Shown: positions 8,640 to 22,499 of the stretch, piece by piece
Position numbering within the stretch: the stretch's first letter is position 1
Layout: every line of letters starts with the position of its first letter
Assembly (NCBI RefSeq): GCF_030384885.1
Contig: NZ_CP128613.1
DNA: 64,000 nt
Origin: Escherichia coli
GTDB lineage: Bacteria; Pseudomonadota; Gammaproteobacteria; Enterobacterales; Enterobacteriaceae
Reading direction: 5' to 3' (one strand)
Made by a program: the position numbers and the translations under genes
The notes under the pieces: model-generated
The model's input: only the letters and a program-made list of their open reading frames with translations
The model's database searches: none
Told to the model about the DNA's origin: nothing

Positions 8640-8900
8640 GCTCGAACAGCAGGCAATTGCCAATATAATAATCTGGCACAAGGGTGAAAAACGCGCACCG
8701 CATAAACCGTTGTTATTGCTTACAGATTAGCCGGATGCCTTAATAGACATCCGCGCCTTTTCGATTATGGCTCGGAAATCTACGAACCTCTGCACAGTTT
8801 ACTGGAACGTTTTGGACCACAGCGTTCACAGTACCGACCTGATATGCCGTTCTGGCGATTATAAGGCGACGGATTCTGGCAAATAGACGATGATAATATG
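8640..8900 (+). pseudogene. Degraded fragment paralogous to the N-terminal domain of the HNH-nuclease gene at 19855-20730
   Basis: Frame-shifted translation gives NIIIWHKGEKRAPHKPLLLL and LFDYGSEIYEPLHSLLERFGPQRSQYRPDMPFWRL, matching NITIWRKGEQRAPHKPLLLL...RLFNYGSEIYEPLLDLLERYGPQRRDQRPDMPFWRL of the 20227-20775 ORF; stops and frameshifts present. Confidence 0.6.
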
Positions 8901-12837: not shown

Positions 12838-12961
12838 TATGGATTGAACCAGGTTGACGTTAGTTGAAAAAAACAGTGGAAAAGATTTGTGTGGCGCGGA
12901 TTTCAGGCATAAAAAAAGACCTCAGTTGAGGTCTATTTACATACTTTTGGTGCGAAGGCCG
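12838..12961. repeat. Direct repeat copy 1 (island-distal att-like site): leuX 3' flank plus 14 nt of tRNA 3' end
   Basis: 12894-12953 is a 60-bp perfect copy of 22361-22420; about 55 bp upstream shows roughly 85 percent similarity; ends in TGGTGCGAAGGCCG, matching the leuX 3' end with a 1-nt deletion. Confidence 0.8.
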
Positions 12962-13875: not shown

Positions 13876-13989
13876 GGCATCCATCCTTCAGAAGGAGTAG
13901 AAAGTGCCATTAAAACACAAAATTGAGTATAAACACATAATCGTGTTTATACTCACTAATCAACACCCTTGAACGAAAAGAAAATCTCT

Positions 13990-14265
13990 TCATCGTTCTT
14001 CTCTAGTATGCCAGAGATCGACTATATAAATGTCATTGTCACGAAGTTCGTAGTGAACCTCATGGTCATCAAATAACACTTTTCGGACTTCCCGAGGTTC
14101 ATACCGAGTCTGCTGTACGCCAATTGCCGGATGTGCTGTAAGACCAGCACAACCAGTAATCAGGCGATCCAAAACGTCATCGGCGTGCTGGCGGCTATAC
14201 TGAAGGGCGAAACGGTAGATACGCTCAAGGTCATCCTGAGCTTTAAGCGTCCAGTAAATTTCCAT
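13990..14265 (-). CDS. ParE/RelE-superfamily toxin
   Basis: 91 aa, C-terminal IYIVDLWHTREER typical of ParE; starts 3 nt after the upstream RHH gene stop. Confidence 0.75.
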   Translation of the reverse strand: MEIYWTLKAQDDLERIYRFALQYSRQHADDVLDRLITGCAGLTAHPAIGVQQTRYEPREVRKVLFDDHEVHYELRDNDIYIVDLWHTREER

Positions 14266-14592: not shown

Positions 14593-15426
14593 TCATTTCG
14601 CAGGTAACATCCCCGGAAAGTGCTTCGCCACGATATCATTCATCTTCTCCACCAGATCCAGGCGTTTGAAAGTGATATGCCCACTGCCCTTCTGAAAGTA
14701 GCGAATAGTGAACAACTCATCTTCGAAAATCTGCTGATGCGGATTATCGCGCACAAAATCCATAAACCGGATGGAGACATCATGCCGGTTATCAGGAATG
14801 GTCTTTCCATCCAGCAGGTAGAACATCCGTTCCAGATCGGCAAGCTGATCTCTCCGCCAGCCCCAGTTCAGGCTGTAGCCCCATCTGTCATGCTTCACCA
14901 GATTGTTAACGATAATCTTCTTACCGAAATAACAGGGATTATTGGTTTTGTAATCCCAGCTCAATCCCTTAAATACATTGATAATCCCACGTTCGAAAAC
15001 GTCCTGCTTATTGTGGTGGAGTTGTTCAAAGGTACTCAGGATGTTGGCTTCGCTAATCGCCGGGAGATCGCCCTCCTCCAGGTTCTTTGCCCACTGACTG
15101 CGGGCTTCGGCATCCATCAAGGTCAACATCCCGGACTTCAGCATGAGATCGCGCCAGATGCTGCGATCGATATTGCGGGTGATCACCGGCATGGCTTTAT
15201 CCACCGGCTGCACCAGCCAGCAGTCGAAGGAATGGCCCTGACGCATCGCCCAATGCTCCGCCACATCACCACCGATGCTGGAGGTTAGCCGTGAGATATC
15301 ATCAAGCTTATGGATCAGGATTTCTATCAGACTCAACGCAGCATCACGACCCGTCACGATACGCTCAACACTGGTCGAGCAAATTAGCTCGTTATGATCG
15401 GTTAAGACTTCAGCTTCTGTTTGCAT
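14593..15426 (-). CDS. Conserved hypothetical protein of the type commonly encoded downstream of cbtA-family toxin genes (possibly DUF4942-like)
   Basis: 277 aa from ATG 15426 (ORF-track TTG start at 15450); no motif I can assign; position after CbtA-like toxin. Confidence 0.6.
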   Translation of the reverse strand: MQTEAEVLTDHNELICSTSVERIVTGRDAALSLIEILIHKLDDISRLTSSIGGDVAEHWAMRQGHSFDCWLVQPVDKAMPVITRNIDRSIWRDLMLKSGMLTLMDAEARSQWAKNLEEGDLPAISEANILSTFEQLHHNKQDVFERGIINVFKGLSWDYKTNNPCYFGKKIIVNNLVKHDRWGYSLNWGWRRDQLADLERMFYLLDGKTIPDNRHDVSIRFMDFVRDNPHQQIFEDELFTIRYFQKGSGHITFKRLDLVEKMNDIVAKHFPGMLPAK

Positions 15427-15540
15427 AATCTTTTGTCCGTATAAAAGCAAATGCGCCAGCCATGAACAGCAGGCGCATTATGCAGGGAGTTATGAGGGAA
15501 GTAATTTTGGCGATGTAAATCGGGAAGGAGACTCGCAGAT

Positions 15541-15882
15541 TCACCGTGCCGTGGTGTTATGGCAGCGACGCAGCAGACCTGTAGCCTGCCGCGCCCGCAA
15601 AATATCGACCGCACGAAGATAAGGCGTCTGTTCCCGCCAGCTAAATCCTTTCCTGTCGATACGGATCAATTCGTACTTCTCCACCAGAAAATTGATGGCA
15701 TCAACCAGAGTGATCCCGGCGTCTATGTGTTCCTGAATCACCTTTTCATTGTTGAATGGTGTGTCATTAAGGTTCAGTCCGTAGTGCTGCTCCAGCAGGC
15801 GGGCCAGTAATGTTTGCCAGACCACGACGGGCGACAGATATGACGTCGTCGCCCGCAGCGTCGTTGCAGGAATAATTTTCAT
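15541..15882 (-). CDS. CbtA/YeeV/YkfI-family toxin
   Basis: 113 aa, [60 protein letters not shown] resembles YeeV/YkfI/YpjF. Confidence 0.8.
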
Positions 15883-15912
15883 AACGATGTTCCGTATTAA
15901 GGAGGTTAAAAC

Positions 15913-16248
15913 TCAGCGTTGAGTGGGATAAATAGCGATATAGACGTAACCACAGGAACCCAGCGTATCGGCTTCGCAGGTTAGTCCTTTGGCGTATAGC
16001 GTGACGGTACGTTGTTGGCAGGGGGAGAGTTCACCGTCAGCCAGTTTCAGCTCCAGTTGTTTCATCAACACCGGAAAAGCCTGGTCGATATGCAGCAGAT
16101 CCGGGGAGCTGAATTTCCCGGTAATTGCGGCCCGATCAGCCAGGTAATGCAGGTTATGTCTTTCCTGTACCAGTCGAGCAGTGAAGCGTGGTGTTACGGT
16201 ACAGGGAAGCCCCCATTCTTGTTGCATGACCTTGTCCTTTTGCAGCAT
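15913..16248 (-). CDS. CbeA/YeeU/YafW-family antitoxin
   Basis: 111 aa, WGLPCTVTPRFTARLVQERHNLHYLADRAAI...TVTLYAKGLTCEADTLGSCGYVYIAIYP resembles YeeU/YfjZ; directly upstream of the toxin. Confidence 0.8.
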   Translation of the reverse strand: MLQKDKVMQQEWGLPCTVTPRFTARLVQERHNLHYLADRAAITGKFSSPDLLHIDQAFPVLMKQLELKLADGELSPCQQRTVTLYAKGLTCEADTLGSCGYVYIAIYPTQR

Positions 16249-16360
16249 TACAGCCAGCCCCGTTCGGCAAAAGAGAGGACATCCCCCGCCCCAATAATGA
16301 AATGATCCAGCACCCTCACTTTCACCAAATCCAGTGTCTTAACAATATTCGTTGTAATAA

Positions 16361-16909
16361 GTCTGTCGGCCCGACTGGGTTCCCTATGAGGTTGTCACGC
16401 ACACCACAGAATTCCTGCGCGAAGGCATCAAACGGGAGAAATTAAGCGACGCACAAATCCGCGAACTGGAAGAACAAGGCATAGATCCCAATACGCTGGA
16501 GTTTGATGGTAAGGCGCTGGATGAGGCGATCTACAACAAAGACACCAACCGCTATATCCTGCGTAACCTGATGGAAAATGGCCTGAAAGATCGGGACGGC
16601 CAGTTGCCTGGTAAAACCATCATTTTCGCCCGTAACCACAAACACGCGCTGCTGTTGAATGAATTGTTCGACGATATGTACCCGGAAGGGATTGATGCTG
16701 GCGTTGATTTTAAAGATCGCACGCAGGCGGCGTTTGTTGTACCAAAAGAAGATATTGCTGCGCAGAAATACGACCTCTCTATTAATCGTTATAAAGAAGT
16801 GGTGTATCAGGCTGAGGAGTATGAAGATCCGAAAGTGATACTGAAGCGGTTAAAAGATCTGGAAAATGAGATTCTGGCGGATCTGAATGAGCTGGAGGGA
16901 ATGCTGTGA
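16361..16909 (+). pseudogene. 5'-truncated remnant of the R-M gene that precedes hsdS (hsdM-like C-terminus)
   Basis: In-frame coding sequence from 16361 with no start until ATG 16571; C-terminal KYDLSINRYKE motif; stop overlaps hsdS start (GTGA at 16906-16909). Confidence 0.5.
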
Positions 16910-18090
16910 GTTGGCCGTTAGGAAAAGTTTCCGATATTGCTGCTGTTATATCCGGTTTTGCTTTTAAAAGCGAATGGTTTGGTACAGGAGACGCAAAGGT
17001 TATCCGAATTGGCGATCTTAAGAACGGAAAAATCGATCTTAGTGATGCAATGATCTTTGATCATAAAACTAATAAAGTTCGCGAACAATTTAGAATCAAA
17101 AGCGGCGATATTTTAATGGCTCTTTCTGGCGCAACTGTTGGGAAGATCGCAGTTGCTGATGCTGAAGCTGAAGGTGCATATCTTAATCAACGAGTAGCAG
17201 TGATTCGAGGGCGAAATCATGAAAATGCAGAATATTTAAAATACGTATTTTCAGGACACCCTCTCCAAAAACTACTCCTAAATGCAGGTGGTGCGGCACA
17301 GCCAAATCTTAGCTCTAAAGACTTGGCAGAGATGGAAATACCTATTCCCCCTCTTACCGAACAAAAAAGAATCTCAACCATACTTGATAAAGTAAATGGC
17401 ATACGTCAAAAGCGCGAGCAAGCCATAAAGCTGGCTGATAATTTTTTGCATACCATTTTTCATGAGATGTTTGGCGATCCTGTTAAAAACCCGAAGGGAT
17501 GGGATGTCGCCTCTTTATTAGAATATGGTTCATTCAAAAATGGAATGAATTTTTCAAAAGGTGAATTGGGATCTGCTTTGAAGTGCCTAGGAGTTGGTGA
17601 TTTCAAATCACTGGCAACGATTACCTGTATGGACAATATCGGTGAAATTGAATTAAATACTCTTCCTTCGGATGATTATCTTTTGAAAGATGGTGATATT
17701 GTCTTTGTCCGTTCTAATGGTAATAAAGCCTTGGTCGGAAGATGTCTTACTATTTATCCAAACAAAGAGAAAGTCACATTTAGTGGGTTTTGCATTCGAT
17801 ACAGAATAAAAAATCCTGCAATCACGCCAGAATATCTCAACTTCCTTTTCCGTACACCGTCAATGAAACAGCAAATGTTGAGCGGGGGCCAAGGGGCTAA
17901 TATTCAGAATATTAGCCAAGGTACCTTATCTGCACTCAGGATACCTGTACCTCCATTGGATAAACAACTTGCTTTTGCCAGATTGGTTGATTTCCATGCA
18001 TCTATTGTGAAAAAACAATATGATAAAATGGCTGAATCCGAAAAACTCTTCAATGCCTTGACTGGTGATTTTTTCACATTTAATGAGTGA
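16906..18090 (+). CDS. hsdS: Type I restriction-modification specificity subunit HsdS
   Basis: 394 aa, two target-recognition-like halves with conserved spacer motifs (NQRVAVIRG, LPPLTEQKRI, IPVPPLDKQ); GTG start with RBS GGAGGGA. Confidence 0.85.
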   Translation: MSWPLGKVSDIAAVISGFAFKSEWFGTGDAKVIRIGDLKNGKIDLSDAMIFDHKTNKVREQFRIKSGDILMALSGATVGKIAVADAEAEGAYLNQRVAVIRGRNHENAEYLKYVFSGHPLQKLLLNAGGAAQPNLSSKDLAEMEIPIPPLTEQKRISTILDKVNGIRQKREQAIKLADNFLHTIFHEMFGDPVKNPKGWDVASLLEYGSFKNGMNFSKGELGSALKCLGVGDFKSLATITCMDNIGEIELNTLPSDDYLLKDGDIVFVRSNGNKALVGRCLTIYPNKEKVTFSGFCIRYRIKNPAITPEYLNFLFRTPSMKQQMLSGGQGANIQNISQGTLSALRIPVPPLDKQLAFARLVDFHASIVKKQYDKMAESEKLFNALTGDFFTFNE

Positions 18091-18145
18091 TGGTTTATAG
18101 GATAACTCATTCATTACAAAATTTATTAAATACATAGAGGGGCAA

Positions 18146-18691
18146 ATGGGTACATATATCTCAGATAAAACAGAAACATGTTTTGATGAATATTCTTTAA
18201 TCGAAAAAGTCGGGGATGGCTATAAGATTAGTGTGTACTCATTTAAGCTTCATACAGGAAATCCTTACCAGCCACATATATCAGAAAGTTATAGTGGTGA
18301 TATTTTTATTAGCTATTTGTACTATGGAAATGATTCTTATTACGAGCGCAGACGTCAGGAATACAGAAAATATTTATCATTAAAAGAAATCCACCTTGCT
18401 ATTCTAAAGATGTTTCCAGATGAGCGAAGAATTGCGATAGGTATAAAAAAAGAAAATTACAGTACCGTAAAAATAACTTATGCGGCAGCGGATGAAGTAT
18501 ATCTTCTTGATATTAAAAATAAAGAGACATTATTGTTAGATAATATATTATGTCTATATGATGTTATTTATAAGCATGAAAGCAACATTAATAAATTGGA
18601 AGGCGAGTTAGCAAGTAGTAAAAAAGAACTCCAAAGTATGAAGATAGATATAAAAGAAAAATGTAAATCTATTCTTGATATTGTTGATTAG
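18146..18691 (+). CDS. Hypothetical protein, AT-rich, predicted C-terminal coiled coil
   Basis: 181-aa ORF, ATG 18146 with RBS AGAGGGG; markedly lower GC than neighbours; no recognisable motif. Confidence 0.55.
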   Translation: MGTYISDKTETCFDEYSLIEKVGDGYKISVYSFKLHTGNPYQPHISESYSGDIFISYLYYGNDSYYERRRQEYRKYLSLKEIHLAILKMFPDERRIAIGIKKENYSTVKITYAAADEVYLLDIKNKETLLLDNILCLYDVIYKHESNINKLEGELASSKKELQSMKIDIKEKCKSILDIVD

Positions 18692-19854: not shown

Positions 19855-20730
19855 TCAATGCTCTCCTCTGAACACCTCTTTTCTGTGCCATTCCACAAAC
19901 CGCTCGCCAGGATAATTTTCTTTAACCGGTGGCAACGCAATCGCCTTTCCTGCAAAATCCCAGAACAGCCGCTGTACCACCCCACCGCCATTTACCGCGC
20001 CGGAAACCACCACACGCATATTTTCATCCAAACCAATCGAACCACGATCAAACGCTTTATGATGGATGGCGCACAATGCCAGGCCATTAGGTACTTCACA
20101 AGGGCCATGGTGCTGCTTCCATCTGATATGAGCGGCTTCCAGAGCAATCGGCGCATTGTCGTGGCGCATGTTAAAGCCGCAGATAGCGCACTGATAATTG
20201 TAAGCACGTAGCACCATCTGACGGAACTACGGATCGCGTTGACGGAGAGAGGTGCGAATATCAAAACCCATCTCGTCAGCTATCTCTTCCTGAATACTGG
20301 CCGGGAAATGCGCCTCCAGGAGCTGCTGCGCCAGCGTATCAATTAACCTGTGATTTTTTGCCACCAAAGCAAAATTATCGGCATCAAATCCACCAGCAAC
20401 ATTATATTCAATGAGTTCACGTCGGGGCGGCTGGCGGCTACCACTGGTTGAGCACAGTTCCGCGTTATGTAGTTCCCAGAAGCCATCGCCCTTCAGACGC
20501 CAGAACGGCATGTCCGGGCGCTGGTCACGGCGCTGCGGTCCATAACGTTCCAGTAGATCCAACAGGGGCTCGTAGATTTCAGAACCATAGTTAAACAGGC
20601 GACCATGACCCTGCCGATAGTGTGAGAGAACGTACAGCAGCAATAATGGCTTATGTGGCGCACGTTGTTCGCCTTTGCGCCAGATGGTGATATTTGATAT
20701 CGCTTGTTTTAGGGTTTTGTCAGAGGTCAT
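19855..20730 (-). pseudogene. HNH endonuclease-family gene with unknown N-terminal domain, interrupted by one in-frame amber (TAG) codon
   Basis: ORFs 20227-20775 and 19855-20217 are in the same frame, separated only by TAG at 20229-20227 plus 3 sense codons; C-terminal part has HNH motifs CAICGF...EAAHIRWKQHHGP...NGLALCAIHHKAFD. Confidence 0.7.
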
Positions 20731-20861
20731 TGCGTTGGAGAATCCATGAGCACATATTTGCGATGATGCTCGCAACTATATGTACATTCAAGGCATTATT
20801 GCAGACATCCTTTTTCTCTGGCGGTTCTGTACCTGGCAGATAGAATTCTGATAACAACGGT

Positions 20862-20945: not shown

Positions 20946-22214
20946 TCACTCGCCATTCCCCCGGTTGATCTTCGCATAGTCAAACGGCGTAATCGCTCTT
21001 TCCCGATTGGCATCCAGAAAATCAGCCCACCACTGTAACATCAGCTTGCGCTCATCCAGATGTTCCGCTTTATGGATATACGCCGCCCTCACCGAATTGC
21101 GTTCCATATGGCTCATCTGGCGCTCCACCGCATCCTTCGACCATAGCCCTGACTCAATTAACGAACTACAGGCCATTGTACGGAAGCCGTGGCCGCAAAC
21201 TTCAACCTTAGTGTCATAACCCATCACCCGTAGCGCACTGTTTACCGTGTTCTCGCTCATGGGCTTACGCGGATCGTGATCGCCAATAAAAATCAGCTCA
21301 TGTTCGCCACAGAACTGTTTTATCTGCTTCAGGATCGCCAGCGCCTGCTTTGAAAGCGGCACCAGATGAGGTGTGCGCATCTTTGAACCTCGCTGAGAAT
21401 GTTTCACGCCGGGAATCGGTTCTCGCTCAGGCGGGATGGTCCACATTGATGTTTCAAAATCGATCTCTGACCAGCGAGCAAAACGCAGCTCACTGGATCG
21501 AATAAAAATAAGCAGAGTAAGTTCGGTTGCCCAGCGGGTTAGCGGCCTGCCGGTATAGCCGTCTATTTTCTCAAGCAACTCAGGGATGCGCTTTAACTCC
21601 AGCGCCGGACGATGCTGTCGATTACTGGAAGCAACCGCCCCTGCCATCTCTTGCGCCGGATTGTAATCAATTAACCCGCTTTGCACTGCATAACGCATGA
21701 TGGCCGTGGTGCGCTGTTGAAGGCGGGAAGCCACCTCAAGACGTCCGGATTTCTCCACGGCTTTAATAGGAATTAACAGATCGCGGGTGCCCAGTTCAGC
21801 AATATTGTGGGAACCAATTGCCGGGAAGATATTGTCCTCCAGGCTCTTTTTTACACGATTAGCATGATCTTCCGACCATTTTTGGTTGGTTACGAGCCAC
21901 TCTTTGGCAACCTTCTCGAAAGTAATAATCTCTTTCGCCTGCTCTTCTTTCACAGCACGCTTATGCTCACGAGGATCGATACCAGCAGCTACCAGCTTTC
22001 TGGCCTCTTCCCTTTTCTTCCTGGCATCCGCCAGCGAAACATCCGGGTAAACGCCGAACGCCATCAAATGTTGTTTACCACCAAAACGGAAACGAAATCG
22101 CCAATACTTTGAACCGCCAGGTTTTACAAGTAAGGACATGCCGTCGCCGTCAACAAGTGAATACTCTTTCTCCTCAGGTTTCGCAGAGCGAACTTTAGTA
22201 TCCGTTAGGGCCAT
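20946..22214 (-). CDS. intB: P4-type tyrosine integrase (IntB-like)
   Basis: 422 aa from MALTDTKVRSAKPEEKEY with RBS GGAAGGAAG; C-terminal tyrosine-recombinase catalytic region; adjacent to tRNA-Leu. Confidence 0.9.
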   Translation of the reverse strand: MALTDTKVRSAKPEEKEYSLVDGDGMSLLVKPGGSKYWRFRFRFGGKQHLMAFGVYPDVSLADARKKREEARKLVAAGIDPREHKRAVKEEQAKEIITFEKVAKEWLVTNQKWSEDHANRVKKSLEDNIFPAIGSHNIAELGTRDLLIPIKAVEKSGRLEVASRLQQRTTAIMRYAVQSGLIDYNPAQEMAGAVASSNRQHRPALELKRIPELLEKIDGYTGRPLTRWATELTLLIFIRSSELRFARWSEIDFETSMWTIPPEREPIPGVKHSQRGSKMRTPHLVPLSKQALAILKQIKQFCGEHELIFIGDHDPRKPMSENTVNSALRVMGYDTKVEVCGHGFRTMACSSLIESGLWSKDAVERQMSHMERNSVRAAYIHKAEHLDERKLMLQWWADFLDANRERAITPFDYAKINRGNGE

Positions 22215-22304: not shown

Positions 22305-22420
22305 GTGGGTTGAGTCAGGTTGACTTCAGTTGAGGGGAAAAGCTGGAAAAGCCTTGTGTAGCGCGGATTTCAGGCATAAAAAAAGACCTCAGTTGAGGTC
22401 TATTTACATACTTTTGGTGC
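22305..22420. repeat. Direct repeat copy 2 (integrase-proximal), covering the leuX terminator hairpin and tRNA 3' end
   Basis: 22361-22420 identical to 12894-12953; contains GACCTCAGTTGAGGTC hairpin plus T-run on the minus strand (leuX terminator). Confidence 0.8.
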
Positions 22421-22499
22421 CGAAGGCCGGACTCGAACCGGCACGTATTTCTACGGTTGATTTTGAATCAACTGCGTCTACCGATTTCGCCACTTCGGC
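22415..22499 (-). tRNA. leuX: tRNA-Leu (CAA anticodon), leuX
   Basis: Reverse complement reads GCCGAAGTGGCGAAATCGGTAGACGCAGTTGATTCAAAATCAACCGTAGAAATACGTGCCGGTTCGAGTCCGGCCTTCGGCACCA, 85 nt with encoded CCA. Confidence 0.95.

Follow-up and report, generated by a model that had tools for sequence, protein, structure and literature searches.

An orphan hsdS at the Escherichia coli leuX island as the probable leftover of a type I restriction-modification operon lost through two successive microhomology-flanked deletions

The hsdS gene described here, together with the reading frame before it, very probably marks the site of a former type I restriction-modification operon of the leuX island, which was destroyed by two successive deletions flanked by microhomology and of which hsdS is an inert leftover. 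The analysed DNA, referred to as the window, is a stretch of 64,000 nt. The parental sequence was found, both junctions were located, the order of the events was established and each allele was recovered from independent assemblies. When the two deletions were applied to the record of E. coli 2013C-4282 (NZ_CP027579.1) and the result was aligned, the whole window differed from it by 10 substitutions and no other indel. The substitutions are all single-base changes and are situated at window positions 2476, 4890, 13193, 28901, 40755, 44318, 46457, 46782, 49472 and 59543. Compared with 2013C-4282 the window is without 11,833 bp, comprising hsdR codons 1-543 and 644-1137, hsdM codons 1-468, both promoter regions, seven island genes and most of radC.

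Results

Parent operon and its island

The genome of 2013C-4282 possesses a complete hsdR-hsdM-hsdS operon at its leuX island (WP_105279021.1, WP_106907654.1 and WP_106907655.1, respectively). The 1137-aa HsdR contains an N-terminal DUF4145 along with HSDR_N, ResIII/SWI2_SNF2, Helicase_C and EcoEI_R_C domains, while the 544-aa HsdM contains HsdM_N and N6_Mtase. With three subunits, the R-M-S gene order and an overlapping M/S junction, the operon resembles the classical type IA (EcoKI) and type IB (EcoAI/EcoEI) systems. The EcoEI_R_C domain is a likeness to type IB, whereas the N-terminal DUF4145 is a difference from both classical types. The parent HsdR scored below the cut-off of the type IA model NF008521 (334 bits, cut-off 729) and below that of the EcoAI/FtnUII (type IB) model (231 bits, cut-off 550). 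Similarly, HsdS reached 111.6 bits against the type IA model NF007278, which has a cut-off of 662 and thus does not place it in type IA. No name for the parent system was found in the literature. The parent is an ordinary type I restriction-modification system.

The site, the island, hsdS, the retained hsdR and hsdM sequence and the downstream genes are identical in the window and in 2013C-4282, and the order 3' of the operon is the same in both, with a hypothetical gene, a 5'-nucleotidase, a broken phosphorothioate-dependent endonuclease and an integrase. Stretches of 303 nt and 6,325 nt are 100% identical, so that these homologies are far past chance. Window 15500-16383 was found to be 100% identical to cbtA-cbeA-radC of 2013C-4282. 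When 5,426 complete E. coli genomes were compared with the window, window 16678-18200 was 100% identical to the hsdM end and hsdS of the same strain, and window 16378-16684 matched the interior of a gene annotated as 'DEAD/DEAH box helicase / type I restriction subunit R' in hundreds of genomes. The coordinates of the individual features are given in Table 1.

Table 1. Features of the scar and of the surrounding leuX island, in window coordinates.
Feature	Position	Strand	Remarks
Left direct repeat of the leuX island	12877-12953		77 nt; copy of tRNA-Leu 3'-end sequence; 96% identical to 22344-22420, spacing 9,467 nt
cbtA	15541-15882	-	Pfam CbtA_toxin, 6.7e-56; identical in 2013C-4282
cbeA	15913-16248	-	Pfam CbeA_antitoxin, 8.6e-48; identical in 2013C-4282
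radC (JAB/RadC family) 3' remnant	16248-16383	-	last 45 of 157 codons; 100% identical to 2013C-4282 radC up to 16383
Junction 1	16378-16383		GGTTCC (6 nt) common to radC and hsdR; deletion 1 of 8,881 bp, radC to hsdR codon 543
hsdR internal fragment	16378-16680	+	codons 544-643 of 1137; 303 nt; 100% identical to 13925-14227 of the 2013C-4282 locus (L005)
Junction 2	16678-16684		GTA exact, or GTAYCCG (7 nt) with one mismatch, hsdR/hsdM; deletion 2 of 2,952 bp
hsdM 3' fragment	16678-16909	+	codons 469-544 and stop; 232 nt; stop overlaps hsdS start
hsdS	16906-18090	+	GTG start; 394 aa; two target-recognition domains and conserved central region
Hypothetical gene	18146-18691	+	181 aa; no family match; unchanged island gene 3' of hsdS
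5'-nucleotidase (PF06189)	18812 (annotated start)-19777	+	unchanged island gene
Phosphorothioate-dependent restriction endonuclease (DNA-SBD_ScoMcrA and HNH_2)	19855-20775	-	split by internal stop; pseudogene in 2013C-4282 too
Island integrase	20946-22214	-	
Right direct repeat	22344-22420		77 nt
leuX, tRNA-Leu(CAA)	22415-22499	-	

The island of the window is flanked by the two 77-nt direct repeats. Of all E. coli defence hotspots, leuX ('hotspot 37') has the heaviest occupancy, and several type I families are present there (PMC12707154). Another fragment of a phosphorothioate-dependent endonuclease gene of this kind, this one frameshifted, was observed at about 8656-8861 (+), left of yjhR, and the two fragments suggest remnants of earlier leuX islands. 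In E. coli W-like islands (L002), hypothetical proteins of 582 aa and 88 aa fill the slot between hsdS and the 5'-nucleotidase, which may be a variable cargo slot. In a record labelled E. coli DH5alpha (NZ_CP026085.1; L002 5408-9786), the hsdR of the same family is truncated at its 5' end by insertion of ISVsa5 (IS4-like), representing another route of decay for this operon. On the other side of the scar, cbtA and cbeA form an intact type IV toxin-antitoxin pair which now adjoins it. They belong to a packed minus-strand run, DUF932-radC-cbeA-cbtA-DUF4942 (cbeA, cbtA and DUF4942 at 14593-16248), and deletion 1 removed everything upstream of this run. The toxin-antitoxin pair may have lost an upstream promoter through that deletion.

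Composition of the upstream reading frame

The frame upstream of hsdS is open from 16361 to 16909, and its first ATG, GTG or TTG codon is an ATG at 16571. Domain searches on its 182-aa translation were nearly blank. No significant Pfam family was detected, the best being DUF6844 at E=0.067, below threshold, and among NCBIfam models residues 14-109 gave a weak match (E=2.8e-4) to the middle of the type I endonuclease model NF008521. The fragment was therefore identified by DNA comparison with E. coli genomes, which revealed an in-frame chimera made up of hsdR (codons 544-643) and hsdM (codons 469-544). On the domain map of the parent, the hsdR fragment falls between ResIII/SWI2_SNF2 and Helicase_C and contains no nuclease or Walker motifs. 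HSDR_N (154-316) and ResIII (363-510) are gone and Helicase_C (620-722) is cut; only 100 codons of the 1137 in a complete HsdR are left. The hsdM fragment sits almost entirely past the core of N6_Mtase, a domain spanning 142-510 in the parent, and has zero Pfam matches; it likewise falls short of a complete HsdM. No functional hsdR or hsdM was detected by tblastn in the 64-kb window.

The sequence-only reading had described a truncated gene running from 16361 with no start codon and had placed a breakpoint at about 16300-16360. The open frame stands as described, with no start before 16571, though it consists of two fused gene pieces and not of a single C-terminal fragment. The statement that no hsdR is present holds in the functional sense; as sequence, the internal piece of hsdR in Table 1 remains. 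An alignment of 16361-16909 to the C-termini of HsdM and HsdR had been proposed, and it agreed with the C-terminal end of HsdM (codons 469-544) while the match to HsdR is internal (544-643). The breakpoint itself was put about 20-80 bp too far left: radC homology runs to 16383, so that the real left breakpoint is 16378-16383. A second breakpoint, at 16678-16684, had been overlooked.

Junctions of the two deletions

Both junctions were set to base level by three-way alignment of the window with the two parental sites. Beyond 16383 the homology to 2013C-4282 leaps 8,881 bp. Besides the radC and hsdR sequence, deletion 1 took seven island genes (DUF932, hypothetical, Gp2-family, HTH, hypothetical, GTPase and WYL) and the sequence 5' of hsdR. 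Deletion 2 amounts to 984 codons, runs in frame from hsdR codon 644 to hsdM codon 468 and includes the hsdR-hsdM intergenic region. At its junction the sequence GTACCCG is present exactly in some hsdR alleles, for example in strain GF4-3. The pattern is that of microhomology-mediated (illegitimate) deletion, with a shared short sequence of which one copy is retained, and with intact and intermediate alleles in close relatives.

A remnant of similar appearance is found in E. coli PK8568 (NZ_CP080126.1). It is also situated at leuX, belongs to the same family, and has hsdM cut to its 3' end (~96 codons) followed by an intact hsdS. Its radC junction is within 2 nt of the radC breakpoint of the window. 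Unlike in the window, no piece of hsdR intervenes and radC meets hsdM directly at GGGTT, so this is an independent event. The island lineage differs as well (94-97% identity), and the recognition domains of the two hsdS genes are 33% identical. The PK8568 junction (L003 8984-9393; window equivalents 16280-16381 and 16678-16917) leaves a radC fragment of ~100 nt between two junctions. The helicase in the PK8568 arrangement 'hsdM-hsdS-helicase' was considered as a sign of an M-S-R order variant and rejected, being unrelated to the parent HsdR. The radC site CTGGGTTCC was thus used in two independent deletions, one in the window lineage and one in PK8568. As a frequent deletion hotspot it found no support, since just 1 of 221 complete genomes with the same radC allele is broken there, and the radC'|'hsdM junction of PK8568 was found in that genome only. 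The near-identical radC breakpoints may be coincidental, or could reflect a hotspot that is weak at best.

Distribution and order of the alleles

Same-family hsdM matches were present in 432 of the 5,426 complete E. coli genomes, and in 410 of these they covered 80% or more of the gene. Neither junction 1 nor junction 2 was found in any of the 5,426. As the full hsdM is widespread and both junctions are absent from complete genomes, the intact form is ancestral and the deleted form derived. An exact-protein look-up of HsdS recovered both the intact and the deleted contexts from public assemblies. GCA_035824455.1 and the window share 13,185 nt of identical sequence, both junctions included. The exact 112-aa open reading frame of the scar was called on 12 contigs, and all six places fetched, from six different samples, carry both junctions. 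Overall, the double-deletion allele was verified at no fewer than seven loci (at least 7) from different samples, including GCA_035824455.1 and GCA_036346665.1.

The predicted product of deletion 2 alone is a 719-aa fusion of HsdR 1-643 and HsdM 469-544. Exactly this fusion is encoded in two assemblies, Logan ERR13369355 (L015 3001-5160) and Logan SRR16894909 (L016 779-2938). In both, junction 2 is present and junction 1 absent, and the sequence is 0-1 base off that of 2013C-4282. The existence of assemblies with junction 2 but without junction 1 indicates a two-step decay in which deletion 2 came first. The fusion joins the HsdR nuclease and the first half of the motor to the C-terminal tail of HsdM and is positioned directly 5' of hsdS.

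The retained hsdS

The GTG start of hsdS overlaps the stop of the upstream frame (GTGA) and is preceded, five bases 5', by a good Shine-Dalgarno sequence, GGAGGGA, at 16894-16900. Pfam detected two Methylase_S stretches in the protein (E=1.2e-31), and it matches type I S subunits of solved structure, that of EcoKI among them. In an alignment with two HsdS proteins of the same family, the N-terminus (MSWP) was conserved, both recognition domains were variable, and the central block IRQKREQAIKL...EMFGDPVxNPKGW was strongly conserved. The protein thus shows the two target-recognition domains and conserved spacer regions of an S subunit. It is identical at 394/394 residues to WP_106907655.1 of the intact operon, confirming the view from sequence alone that hsdS is intact in its GTG start, ribosome-binding site and both halves. 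Among carriers of the double deletion the hsdS variants were F313F and V266I and none else. hsdS itself gives no positive evidence of decay.

Discussion

The scar is best described as the outcome of two steps. In the first, 2,952 bp were lost at GTA(Y)CCG, producing an in-frame hsdR::hsdM fusion and abolishing the restriction and methylation subunits together. In the second, 8,881 bp were lost at GGTTCC, from the interior of radC to hsdR codon 543, together with the promoter region of hsdR and the seven island genes. An unaltered hsdS is left over, along with 303 nt from hsdR and 232 nt from hsdM. With both native promoter regions and the cognate HsdM and HsdR gone, hsdS is probably inert now, and its intact look most likely reflects the young age of the deletions, which has left mutations no time to accumulate. 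HsdM contacts HsdS through its C-terminal tail in other type I systems. There is a slight possibility that the first-step fusion, with the HsdR nuclease, half the motor and the HsdM tail, was harmful and that selection therefore favoured the second deletion.

Other origins of the scar were considered. Both junctions could have been formed in one replication-based event, by serial template switching from radC to hsdR to hsdM with 303 nt copied between. The two microhomology junctions lie 300 nt apart, and PK8568 retains a similar short radC fragment between two junctions, which would suit such an event. It was given very little probability and is ruled out as a single event by the two assemblies that carry junction 2 without junction 1 in otherwise identical sequence, as these make the deletions separable and sequential. 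The 112-codon open reading frame (ATG 16571 to 16909) could instead be read as a genuine small gene translationally coupled to hsdS, being uninterrupted, called by some gene callers and overlapping the hsdS start with its stop. This is hardly credible, since one half matches the interior of the parent hsdR and the other the end of the parent hsdM, both at 100% identity, no Shine-Dalgarno sequence precedes 16571, Pfam gave no significant match (DUF6844 only, as above), and none of the 5,426 complete genomes has the junction creating the frame. That the deletions are assembly artefacts has nothing specific in its favour and is the most improbable of all, as both junctions recur in at least seven independently assembled samples and microhomologies of 3-7 nt are not what makes assemblers collapse sequence.

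The remaining question concerns the use of hsdS. Orphan or plasmid-borne hsdS genes which complement a resident hsdMR, as well as phase-variable loci with multiple hsdS genes, exist in other bacteria, and they share with the window an hsdS that has no functional hsdM or hsdR beside it. By analogy hsdS could be a working spare, expressed with HsdM and HsdR from elsewhere, resident or horizontally acquired, or a donor of recognition domains by recombination. The gene is fully intact with its own ribosome-binding site, and same-family systems are fairly common among the complete genomes (432 of 5,426), so a partner could arrive. Such a role was nevertheless judged improbable. Unlike those systems, the window has no same-family partner, second hsdS, inverted repeats or dedicated invertase, and its orphan state was traced to two recent deletions. 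A tblastn search found no further hsdS, hsdM or hsdR in the 64 kb. No inverted repeat of at least 18 nt involving hsdS was found in the window, and the island integrase is the sole recombinase nearby. One hsdS in 64 kb, with no inverted repeats and no adjacent invertase, does not make a shufflon. The sister genome, that of 2013C-4282, which is the basis for the absence of a partner, has a single same-family hsdM. Its other type I system, between mrr and mcrBC, is type IA and only 25% (S), 28% (M) and 26% (R) identical to the parent, with an HsdM C-terminus without similarity. Type I families are delimited partly by complementation tests (PMC3874165), and from these identities cross-use of hsdS with the type IA system appears unlikely.

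Both native promoter regions are deleted, and the nearest genes upstream of the scar run on the opposite strand. No sigma70-like promoter was predicted on the + strand of 15800-16906 by a crude consensus match, which could miss a weak or non-sigma70 promoter. There is just a slight chance that the orphan hsdS is expressed from a fortuitous promoter and serves as a standby specificity subunit or domain donor for same-family systems (~8% of E. coli at leuX). The intactness of hsdS needs no selection either, given 10 SNPs per 64 kb relative to the intact sister. The sequence-only reading had offered two explanations, a decaying restriction-modification system and an hsdS kept for recombination or complementation. 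The first is borne out by the intact parent in a near-identical genome, the base-level junctions and the one-deletion intermediate in public data. The second gained no support, there being no second hsd gene or inverted repeats in the window and one same-family hsdM in the sister genome.

The loss by two deletions is a recent and ordinary pseudogenisation in a known hypervariable defence hotspot and is nothing new in kind. Its biological weight is small, representing routine gene loss at leuX, the most variable defence locus of E. coli. For annotation, an 'intact' hsdS of this sort is not to be counted as an active restriction-modification system or as a defence gene. Together with the complete operon and the R::M in-frame fusion, the double deletion makes up a natural allelic series on a near-identical background, which is usable for the study of the HsdS methylation motif and of island erosion. 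The joint loss of restriction and modification in a single deletion represents a safe route for losing a restriction-modification system.
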